Source: an uncultured Eubacteriales bacterium (lineage in GTDB: Bacteria > Bacillota > Clostridia > Christensenellales > Aristaeellaceae). From it: a DNA stretch of 64,000 nucleotides. The DNA lies in contig ONRC01000005.1 of the NCBI GenBank assembly GCA_900320085.1, forward strand, positions 35,735 to 99,734, read 5' to 3'. Under the pieces are notes generated by a model. It saw only the letters and a list, made by a program, of their open reading frames with translations. It was not told the origin of the DNA and did no database searches. A program made the translations under genes and the position numbers. Shown here one piece after another: positions 1-2,495 of this stretch. Position 1 is the stretch's first letter. Every line of letters starts with the position of its first letter.

Positions 1-626
1 AAGCGGTCACCGCCGATGCTCTTGCCGGGGGCCACGTCCCACAAGTTGCCCAGGCTGCTCACCCAGCCCAGGGCCTGGGCTTCTTTCTTGGTGATGTAGT
101 TGGACGGCAGTTTGCCAAAAGCCCGCAGGTACGCCGCCACATGTTCTTTATCGGAATACTCTCCATCCTCCACCACGAAGGGTTCTTCTTCGGCTTCCGC
201 TTCTTTGGGCGGGGCGGTGGCGTCGGGCTTGGCGGCAGCGGGGTCGGCGGGCAGCTCCGCGCCGATTTCCTCCGCCAGCAGCACGTAGGTTTCCTCATCC
301 AGCTGCCCGGTGGCATTCAGGCCGAAATCCTTCTGGAAGTCCAGCACCGCCGCTTCCAGCGCTTTGCTGAAATTGCCGTCGGTCTTGCCGCTGTAATAGC
401 CCAGCTGCTTGAGCGCTTCCTGGGCGACCTTCACTTCCTTGCCGGAATCGCCCTTTTTCAGGGTTTGGAAGCCCTCGGCGTTCGCGGCGGCGAAGGGCAG
501 CGCGCCGGTGTTTCCGTTCCGGCCCGGCGCGAAGATGAAGAAGATGCTGCCGCCGATCACGGCCAGCGCCACCACGACGGCGACGATGCGGGCGATCATG
601 CTTCTTGTTTTGTTTTCCTGCGTCAT
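1..626 (-). CDS. Barnase-family ribonuclease with N-terminal TM helix and peptidoglycan-binding domain; partial, 3' end runs off the window
   Basis: Own minus-strand translation from ATG 626..624. It is absent from the ORF track because there is no stop inside the window. MTQENKTRSMIARIVAVVVALAVIGGSIFF is a TM helix. GDSGKEVKVAQEALKQLGYYSGKTDGNFSKALEAAVLDFQKDFGL is PG_binding_1-like. EHVAAYLRAFGKLPSNYITKKEAQALGWVSSLGNLWDVAPGKSIGGDR matches the barnase core YHKLPDNYITKSEAQALGWVASKGNLADVAPGKSIGGD. ATGA start/stop overlap with the upstream methyltransferase. Confidence 0.85.
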   Translation of the reverse strand, partial: MTQENKTRSMIARIVAVVVALAVIGGSIFFIFAPGRNGNTGALPFAAANAEGFQTLKKGDSGKEVKVAQEALKQLGYYSGKTDGNFSKALEAAVLDFQKDFGLNATGQLDEETYVLLAEEIGAELPADPAAAKPDATAPPKEAEAEEEPFVVEDGEYSDKEHVAAYLRAFGKLPSNYITKKEAQALGWVSSLGNLWDVAPGKSIGGDR

Positions 627-1846
627 GTGTTTTCCTCCTGTATCCATACGCTGCGGTTGCCCAGCACGTCCGAAATCAGCACGGCGGGCACGCCCCGCAG
701 CTGGGGCAATTGCAGCGTGGTTTGCAGCGCCGGGGTATGCTTGGCCCGGGCGGCGTTGGCCTGCACGTAGAACGCCCGGTCGCGGTAAAAGCCCACCGAC
801 CACTGGTCCACCGCGTCCAGTCCCGTGACGGGCGCGCCTTCCGGCGTCCGGTAATCAATCAGATGCGCGTCGTGGAAGGCGATGCCGGGGTCAAATTCTG
901 CCTCCATCACCGCGCCTGAGGTGCCCGTCGGCGCTTCCACGGTCATGGCGGTATCCAGCAGGCGCTTGCGCGTCACAGACAGGGAAAGCGTCCCCACATC
1001 CGAGGACAGGAACCGCCGCCCTTCCTCCGCCGCGGCCACCGCCGTGGTGCCCGAACCGCCGAACAGATCAGCCACCAGGTCGCCCTTGCGGGTGGTGGAA
1101 AGGATGATGCGCTTGAGCAGCGCCAGGGGCTTTTGGGTGTCGTAGCCGGTGCGCTGTGGGTCCTTCTGCTGCAAATGGCTCACGTCCGTCCACACATCTC
1201 CGGGATAAACGGGGTCATCGTCGTAATAAATATAGGTCTTTCCCCCGGACTTGATGCTGCGGTAGGGCCGCCCCTGCTCGTCGATGCTGCGGCGCATGTG
1301 GTTGGAGCGGTTTTCGCCCCGGGAAATGGGCACTGCCTGGATGTTGAAATACTGGCTGCGGGACTTGCGGTAGAAAAGAATCACGTCATGCTTGCGGGAA
1401 AAGCGCTTCATCGTGCGCCCGCCGGACTGGTAGGCCCAGATGATCTCATTCACGAAATTGCTTTCCCCGAAAATATCATCGCACAAAAGCCGCGCGTGCG
1501 CCGCCATGCGGCTGTCCAGATGCAAAAACAGCGACCCTTCCTCACTCAGCAGCACCTTGGCGTTTTCCAGCGCCTCCCGCAGCAGGCCCAGAAATTCCGC
1601 CTTCCCGGAAAATTTATCCTGATAGGCAGGCAGGGTCAGGGTGTTTTTGCCCGTCGTCCAGCCCTTCTCCCCCACGCGCATCCGCATAAAAAACTCGTCC
1701 CCGGTCATAAACGGCGGGTCGAGATACACGCACGCGGCCTGGCCCGCCCAGCGGCTGAAATCGCCCCGGGCATCCCGCAGAAGCAAATGGCCCTGACTGC
1801 CGTTCAAATGGATTTCCCGGTCGCATTCCACCTGTACCCAGGACAT
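623..1846 (-). CDS. Site-specific DNA methyltransferase, N6-adenine/N4-cytosine, beta-class (N6_N4_Mtase family), with ~115 aa C-terminal extension
   Basis: 407 aa ORF. Catalytic motif VYLDPPF lies near the N-terminus and the SAM motif DLFGGSGTTAVAA near residue 270, which is the beta-class circular order as in CcrM-type enzymes. RBS GGGAGG lies 8 nt upstream of the ATG. No restriction endonuclease gene is adjacent. Confidence 0.85.
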   Translation of the reverse strand: MSWVQVECDREIHLNGSQGHLLLRDARGDFSRWAGQAACVYLDPPFMTGDEFFMRMRVGEKGWTTGKNTLTLPAYQDKFSGKAEFLGLLREALENAKVLLSEEGSLFLHLDSRMAAHARLLCDDIFGESNFVNEIIWAYQSGGRTMKRFSRKHDVILFYRKSRSQYFNIQAVPISRGENRSNHMRRSIDEQGRPYRSIKSGGKTYIYYDDDPVYPGDVWTDVSHLQQKDPQRTGYDTQKPLALLKRIILSTTRKGDLVADLFGGSGTTAVAAAEEGRRFLSSDVGTLSLSVTRKRLLDTAMTVEAPTGTSGAVMEAEFDPGIAFHDAHLIDYRTPEGAPVTGLDAVDQWSVGFYRDRAFYVQANAARAKHTPALQTTLQLPQLRGVPAVLISDVLGNRSVWIQEENT

Positions 1847-2389: not shown

Positions 2390-2495
2390 GCAAGCAGCCC
2401 CCAACGCTCCTAGATATACAGTAATCATACCACAAAATCCATGGATTGACAAGGCGGGAATCTGCGATTATGATAAATCGGAAGGAGTGATTCCA

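Follow-up and report, generated by a model that had tools for sequence, protein, structure and literature searches.

A barnase–barstar pair with a peptidoglycan-binding domain downstream of an orphan DNA methyltransferase in one genus of uncultured Clostridia

Does a barnase-type ribonuclease (RNase) whose start codon overlaps the stop codon of a DNA methyltransferase gene belong to a methylase-linked system, or are the two genes functionally unrelated neighbors? The question is raised by one end of a 64,000-nucleotide (nt) stretch of contig ONRC01000005.1 from an uncultured clostridial bacterium (G000:C68:35735-99734; hereafter the window). A first-pass annotation, made from the letters of the window alone, had described a methylase translationally coupled to a membrane-anchored, peptidoglycan-binding barnase, with no gene for the usual inhibitor, barstar, in view, and had suggested that the two genes might form a toxin/immunity or defense module. 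The RNase gene is truncated by the left edge of the window. Another 35.7 kb of the contig lie beyond that edge, and we read C68:24000-40000 to complete the locus.

The completed locus is a block of four genes on the minus strand, encoding, in this order, a cysteine-rich (Cys-rich) protein, the methylase, the RNase and a barstar. From the domain identities, the intact catalytic and inhibitor residues, the gene order and the distribution of the genes, we infer that the block quite probably brings together an exported, wall-held RNase that would degrade RNA, most likely for scavenging, a barstar that would protect the cytoplasm, and an unrelated, ancient housekeeping pair consisting of the Cys-rich protein and the methylase. 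The apparent oddity of the arrangement came from the position of the window edge, and the main value of the present analysis lies in the correction.

A canonical barstar lies just beyond the window edge

Leftward extension of the contig ruled out a barnase without an inhibitor. One nucleotide past the RNase stop codon starts an open reading frame (ORF) of 88 amino acids (aa), which matches the barstar family PF01337 with an E-value of 2.9e-15 (56.4 bits; cut-off 23.4). The inhibitor appeared to be missing because the window edge had cut off its gene. The barnase-binding helix is kept in this barstar homolog: YYGHNLDALHDCLTE aligns with YYGENLDALWDCLTG, the helix pattern YYGxNLDALxDCLT is retained, and so are both aspartates (D35 and D39). 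The genome contains exactly one barnase and one barstar. Their genes are separated by 1 nt here; across 25 related loci, the junction lies between -4 and +1 nt. The RNase and the barstar are thus an ordinary barnase–barstar pair.

The RNase carries an intact barnase domain and a peptidoglycan-binding domain

The complete RNase is a protein of 263 aa. It matches PF00545 with an E-value of 2.8e-19 (69.9 bits; cut-off 24) and PG_binding_1 (PF01471) with 5.3e-19 (68.5 bits; cut-off 23); for the part of the ORF inside the window, the latter value is 5.7e-19. PDB sequence matches of the PG_binding_1 domain are the peptidoglycan-binding domains of SleB, CtpB and phage endolysins. Alignment of the RNase domain with barnase (residues 9-109; phmmer E ~1e-34) needs no gaps and pairs K180, D207, E226, R236, R240 and H255 with K27, D54, E73, R83, R87 and H102 of barnase. 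All six catalytic-site residues, including the general acid/base pair Glu73/His102, are invariant in an alignment of 19 homologs, and family membership predicts guanyl-preferring activity. The Pro/Ala/Glu linker between the two domains differs in both length and sequence among homologs. Pfam matches and the gapless alignment therefore agree with the domain order given in the first-pass annotation, namely, a hydrophobic N-terminus, PG_binding_1, a Pro/Ala/Glu linker and a barnase core.

How the protein is held is less certain than that annotation implied. The N-terminus consists of a basic n-region and a 19-residue hydrophobic segment (residues 14-32), with a conserved AxA motif further on. This Ala-x-Ala (A46-N-A48 / E49) lies 14 residues past the hydrophobic segment and occupies the same alignment column in 18 of the 19 homologs. 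The hydrophobic segment proposed as a membrane anchor is indeed present but, because the conserved Ala-x-Ala follows it, may instead belong to a signal peptide that is cleaved off. With either a cleaved signal or an anchor, the RNase is predicted to reside outside the cytoplasm in association with the wall. Some 25 PG_binding_1 repeats occur elsewhere in the genome, in at least 8 other loci, and multi-repeat PG_binding_1 proteins are found at C27:39287-40330, C15:6104-7936, C69:4357-5091 and C69:19814-21304 and on C47, C81, C57 and C79. Given so many such proteins, PG_binding_1 appears to be the organism's stock wall-binding module.

The pair resembles the barnase–barstar system of Bacillus amyloliquefaciens (and binase of B. 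pumilus) in the gapless catalytic domain with all six residues kept, in the inhibitor gene located directly downstream and encoding the YYGxNLDALxDC helix, and, presumably, in the export of the enzyme. Unlike B. amyloliquefaciens barnase, the mature RNase has PG_binding_1 on the N-terminal side of its catalytic domain, joined to it by a linker of 45 aa, so that retention at the wall rather than diffusion would be expected. Barnase R59 is replaced by Tyr, and the gene forms part of a methylase operon.

Two loci with the same four-gene block encode variants of the RNase. In one species (L013, G149:C11:7775-8110) the protein is only 165 aa long and the PG_binding_1 part is absent. In the other (G168:C41:3794-4615), the N-terminal half is strongly diverged.

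Surface tethering is common among barnases of gut bacteria

Barnases had been described in the first-pass annotation as normally freely secreted, which would make a tethered enzyme exceptional. We asked whether this holds for 61 other barnase loci (L050-L110) from Lachnospiraceae, Blautia, Bacteroidales and other bacteria. According to tblastn, a barstar lies downstream in 57 of them. A lipobox-like motif follows the hydrophobic segment in 40 of the 59 complete homologs, and most of the remaining 19 have a signal or anchor succeeded by Lys-rich or low-complexity linkers. Since 40/59 carry lipoprotein-type signals, a surface tether is not unusual and free secretion is not the norm among these homologs; judging by such signals, surface-tethered barnases are the rule in gut anaerobes. 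The tethered barnases of Lachnospiraceae, Blautia and Bacteroidales resemble the RNase studied here in the barnase domain, which is 55-78% identical, in a linker of low complexity and in a downstream barstar. They differ in the nature of the tether, a lipid anchor of the lipobox type in those 40 homologs versus a peptidoglycan-binding domain here. Moreover, a methylase never adjoins the barnase in any of the 61 loci. Such routine tethering, whether the tether is a lipid anchor or, as in this genus, a domain that binds peptidoglycan, suggests that RNA degradation at the cell surface is a common trait of gut and rumen communities. Our literature search returned nothing specific on wall-bound or lipoprotein barnases, nor on orphan methylases in Oscillospiraceae or Ruminococcaceae.

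In some genera of the family, two barnase domains are arranged in tandem within one open frame (G022:C4:117902-118630, G133:C1:3184201-3184908, G037:C9:52399-53112 and G098:C25:15761-16498).

What would a wall-associated RNase be for? The first-pass annotation had offered nucleotide scavenging or interbacterial antagonism. Its underlying idea of a surface nuclease holds for an exported, wall-associated enzyme of the barnase type, and both roles are plausible. Simple barnase–barstar pairs have already been described by Zhang et al. 2012 (PMC3482391), who group them with toxin–immunity systems of the polymorphic-toxin type and name PGB1 among the domains that secreted toxins use for adhesion. 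By analogy, the RNase could be an interbacterial toxin that docks via PG_binding_1 on the peptidoglycan of a neighboring Gram-positive cell, with barstar as the immunity protein. The locus does share with the simple pairs that have PGB1/LysM adhesion domains a nuclease, here predicted to be secreted, fused to a peptidoglycan-binding domain, and the toxin gene comes first and the immunity gene second. However, the RNase is without a translocation or receptor-binding domain that would allow entry into the target cytoplasm. The polymorphism, trafficking domains and cassette arrays of such systems are lacking as well: the genome has just one barnase and one barstar, with neither polymorphic cassettes for the C-terminus nor additional immunity genes. 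Instead, the RNase gene is a stable single copy, vertically inherited across the genus and invariable between strains. We consider a role in antagonism unlikely, although it deserves to be kept in mind.

The methylase–RNase pairing is confined to one genus

We compared where the two genes lie in 151 evenly sampled genomes representing 72 genera of the family, and a further survey covered 151 genomes of the order. The source organisms, Clostridia of the rumen and gut, are uncultured; some database records label them Oscillospiraceae. Across all 39 species of the window's genus, both genes are present in 38. In 37 of the 38, the RNase gene directly follows the methylase gene on the same strand, and the single non-adjacent case is due to an assembly break. 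Chance adjacency is thereby ruled out within the genus. This survey of gene neighborhoods, which the first-pass annotation had proposed, finds the pair kept in one genus only.

Within the genus, the block is a stable unit. It is complete in 18/18 species-representative loci and 4/4 metagenome loci that have a full-length PG_binding–barnase protein (50-89% identity) and upstream DNA. In 25 related loci the methylase-to-RNase junction mostly measures from -4 to +5 nt, and in most of them GGAGG, situated within the final methylase codons, precedes the RNase start. The flanks of the block vary. In two loci, the upstream gene for the CCA-adding enzyme (cca) has been replaced; the downstream flank carries a gene for a HAD hydrolase, for Peptidase_M28 or for an HTH/S24 regulator.

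The methylase has a much wider distribution. Full-length orthologs (41-71% identity over residues 1 to ~405) are present in 133/151 genomes and 64/72 genera of the family, nearly always in single copy, and orthologs also occur in 40 of the 151 genomes of the order, spread over at least 15 families. Outside the window's genus, we looked at 17 methylase loci of the family (L014-L030), and in none of them does a barnase or a barstar adjoin the methylase. The next gene there is mreB-like or trmD, located after a gap of 150-600 nt, and cca is divergent upstream. A homolog of the Cys-rich protein adjoins the methylase in 15 of these 17 loci, often with cca next to it. The methylase is therefore an old, mostly single-copy gene of the Clostridia order found in a housekeeping neighborhood (cca, mreB, trmD). 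Barnase domains are common in the family too, but their genes lie either on a different contig from the methylase or at a distance of 4.7-24 kb from it, except in the four sampled genomes of the window's genus. Because the pairing occurs in no lineage outside one genus, it looks like the result of shared descent and not of independent selection.

These observations bear directly on the suggestion that the methylase and the barnase–barstar pair constitute one functional module, be it a toxin/immunity system, an anti-phage defense or an addiction cassette stabilizing the methylase operon. Such a module would account for the tight junctions and for the persistence of the block in 37/38 genomes despite changing flanks, yet the pairing has a single origin in a single clade, being absent both from the 71 other genera surveyed for the methylase and from the 61 other barnase loci, and each half has a universal partner of its own. 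Moreover, a scan with PADLOC returned only generic methylase models and no further defense component, arguing against membership in a defense system. The RNase, if exported as predicted, could not serve as an intracellular abortive-infection toxin unless its export were blocked. With the adjacency limited to one genus, the module that had been suggested is not borne out, and we give it only a slim chance. Indeed, a canonical PF01337 barstar follows downstream and the methylase has a different conserved partner, the Cys-rich protein; these are the two findings that the first-pass annotation itself had named as reducing the arrangement to unrelated genes packed tightly together.

Organization and origin of the block

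Coordinates of the block and its elements are collected in Table 1. The methylase stop codon TGA (625-623) overlaps the RNase start codon ATG (626-624) to form ATGA, as noted in the first-pass annotation. The overlap makes translational coupling possible. Coupling to methylase translation is not required, however, because the RNase gene has its own ribosome-binding site. A promoter-like site upstream of the gene for the Cys-rich protein is the sole such site on the minus strand in the block, a consensus match that by itself is not evidence of function.

Table 1. Features of the four-gene block. Coordinates are window positions unless preceded by C68, which denotes positions on the contig.
Feature	Coordinates	Strand	Basis or remark
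Cys-rich protein gene, 160 aa	1907..2389	-	First gene of block; start set by homologs
Orphan beta-class DNA amino-methyltransferase, 407 aa; catalytic domain, residues 1-296 (959-1846)	623..1846	-	PF01555
Methylase C-terminal all-beta Ig-like domain, residues 297-407	626..958	-	AlphaFold model; no Pfam match
RNase gene, first 208 of 263 codons	1..626	-	ORF map; PF01471, PF00545
Complete RNase gene	C68:35572-36360	-	Last 55 codons left of window
Barstar gene, 88 aa	C68:35304-35570, ~165-431 nt left of window position 1	-	PF01337 2.9e-15
RNase hydrophobic segment, residues 14-32	531..587	-	Signal peptide h-region or signal anchor
PG_binding_1 domain of RNase, residues 61-115	282..446	-	Pfam profile match
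Pro/Ala/Glu-rich linker of RNase, residues 116-160	147..281	-	Homolog alignment
Barnase catalytic domain, residues 161-208 of 161-263 inside window	1..146	-	Alignment to barnase
AGGAGG Shine-Dalgarno of RNase gene, 7 nt before ATG, inside last methylase codons	634..639	-	Sequence
Promoter-like site TTGTCA, 17 nt spacer, TG-TATGAT, ~35 nt upstream of Cys-rich gene	2424..2452	-	Consensus match

Taken together, the data suggest two unrelated gene pairs within one tightly packed and presumably co-transcribed operon. One pair would be the Cys-rich protein and an orphan beta-class methylase most similar to CcrM and M.BceJIV, and the other a standard barnase–barstar cassette. The RNase would be exported via its N-terminal hydrophobic signal; PG_binding_1, joined to the catalytic domain by a flexible linker, would then keep it at the cell surface. 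There it could cut extracellular RNA, most likely for the purpose of scavenging nucleotides or phosphate, while cytoplasmic barstar would neutralize any RNase that folds before export. In the simplest history, the cassette entered at the 3' end of the methylase operon a single time, in the ancestor of the genus, and has been passed down vertically ever since. It would use the promoter of the operon together with its own ribosome-binding site. Borrowing of the promoter fits the location of the only promoter-like site upstream of the Cys-rich gene.

Two points weigh against this scenario. First, the block is intact throughout the genus, in which RNase identity drops to 50% and methylase identity to 66%, while the flanks have been rearranged, so some selection for linkage is possible. 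Taken further, the persistence of the block could mean functional integration, with the methylase (perhaps together with its Cys-rich partner) gating production of the RNase and its inhibitor, or with barnase–barstar as an addiction module guarding the methylase operon; the chance we allow for such integration is slimmer still. Second, sequence does not decide between scavenging and antagonism.

The methylase and its Cys-rich partner

The ORF map and the identity of the neighbors (the Cys-rich protein, cca and the RNase) agree with the earlier statement that the methylase gene at 623-1846 has no adjoining restriction enzyme. Lacking such an enzyme and holding a conserved position across the taxon, it is an orphan (solitary) methyltransferase.

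The protein matches PF01555 (N6_N4_Mtase) with an E-value of 5e-40 (138 bits). Motif IV, DPPF (residues 43-46; consensus D/SPPY/F), precedes motif I, FGGSGTT (262-268; consensus FxGxG), which is the circularly permuted order of the beta class. A profile search against PDB detected M.BceJIV (1.4e-24), MboIIA, RsrI, Type III Mod subunits and CcrM. The AlphaFold model has a predicted local distance difference test score (pLDDT) of 81 and a predicted template modeling score (pTM) of 0.83. When this model was used as a Foldseek query, the best match was CcrM (7.7e-16), and M.BceJIV was matched with a TM-score of 0.74; the fold also matches RsrI and MboIIA. The DPPF motif and the closest structures suggest that the target base is probably N6-adenine. 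RNA as the substrate instead of DNA is less likely.

Like CcrM of Caulobacter and M.BceJIV of Burkholderia cenocepacia, the methylase belongs to PF01555, has motif IV ahead of motif I, is without a partner restriction enzyme and is core-like across its taxon. Unlike them, it is paired with a Cys-rich protein, and sequence identity to the two is only 20-28%. Its all-beta C-terminal module is unrelated to the CcrM C-terminal domain.

That C-terminal module, noted earlier as an uncharacterized region of ~115 aa, is a real and conserved domain of ~110 aa (residues 297 to ~405). AlphaFold predicts it to be all-beta, with eight strands and pLDDT >90, and no Pfam family matches it. A search with the domain alone against 1.84 billion representatives yielded only 53 clusters. 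Almost every one consists of C-termini from this methylase family; the exception, P0265, is a secreted protein of 2128 aa with 13 tandem copies of the domain and a type IX secretion sorting tail. Since this 13-copy protein shows a weak immunoglobulin-like (Ig-like) match, we refer to the domain as Ig-like. A large, mostly uncultured Clostridia family thus carries a core orphan methylase related to CcrM and M.BceJIV and equipped with an Ig-like C-terminal domain.

One methylase homolog, P0135, is 79% identical and has GRPF in place of the DPPF kept by all others. Because of this replacement, it may be catalytically dead.

For the Cys-rich protein, the ORF lister had placed the start at a TTG codon at 2452. 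Homologs, whose called genes encode 160-162 aa, support the ATG at 2389, which gives a protein of 160 aa. Eight cysteines (C24, C28, C32, C33, C77, C81, C90 and C112) are invariant among homologs, and the protein probably binds metal. Scans of Pfam, NCBIfam and PADLOC assigned it to no family, the best Pfam hit being DUF3109 with an E-value of only 0.06-0.19, and a sequence profile search against PDB was without a match. The AlphaFold model is confident (pLDDT 84), and Foldseek finds no PDB fold matching it. With a partner of no recognizable family or fold, the methylase–Cys-rich pair lends itself to methylome studies and structure determination.

At the locus of one species (L032:2259-2612), 351 nt separate the methylase gene from the Cys-rich gene, compared with 2-74 nt in other loci, and this interval may represent an inserted element.

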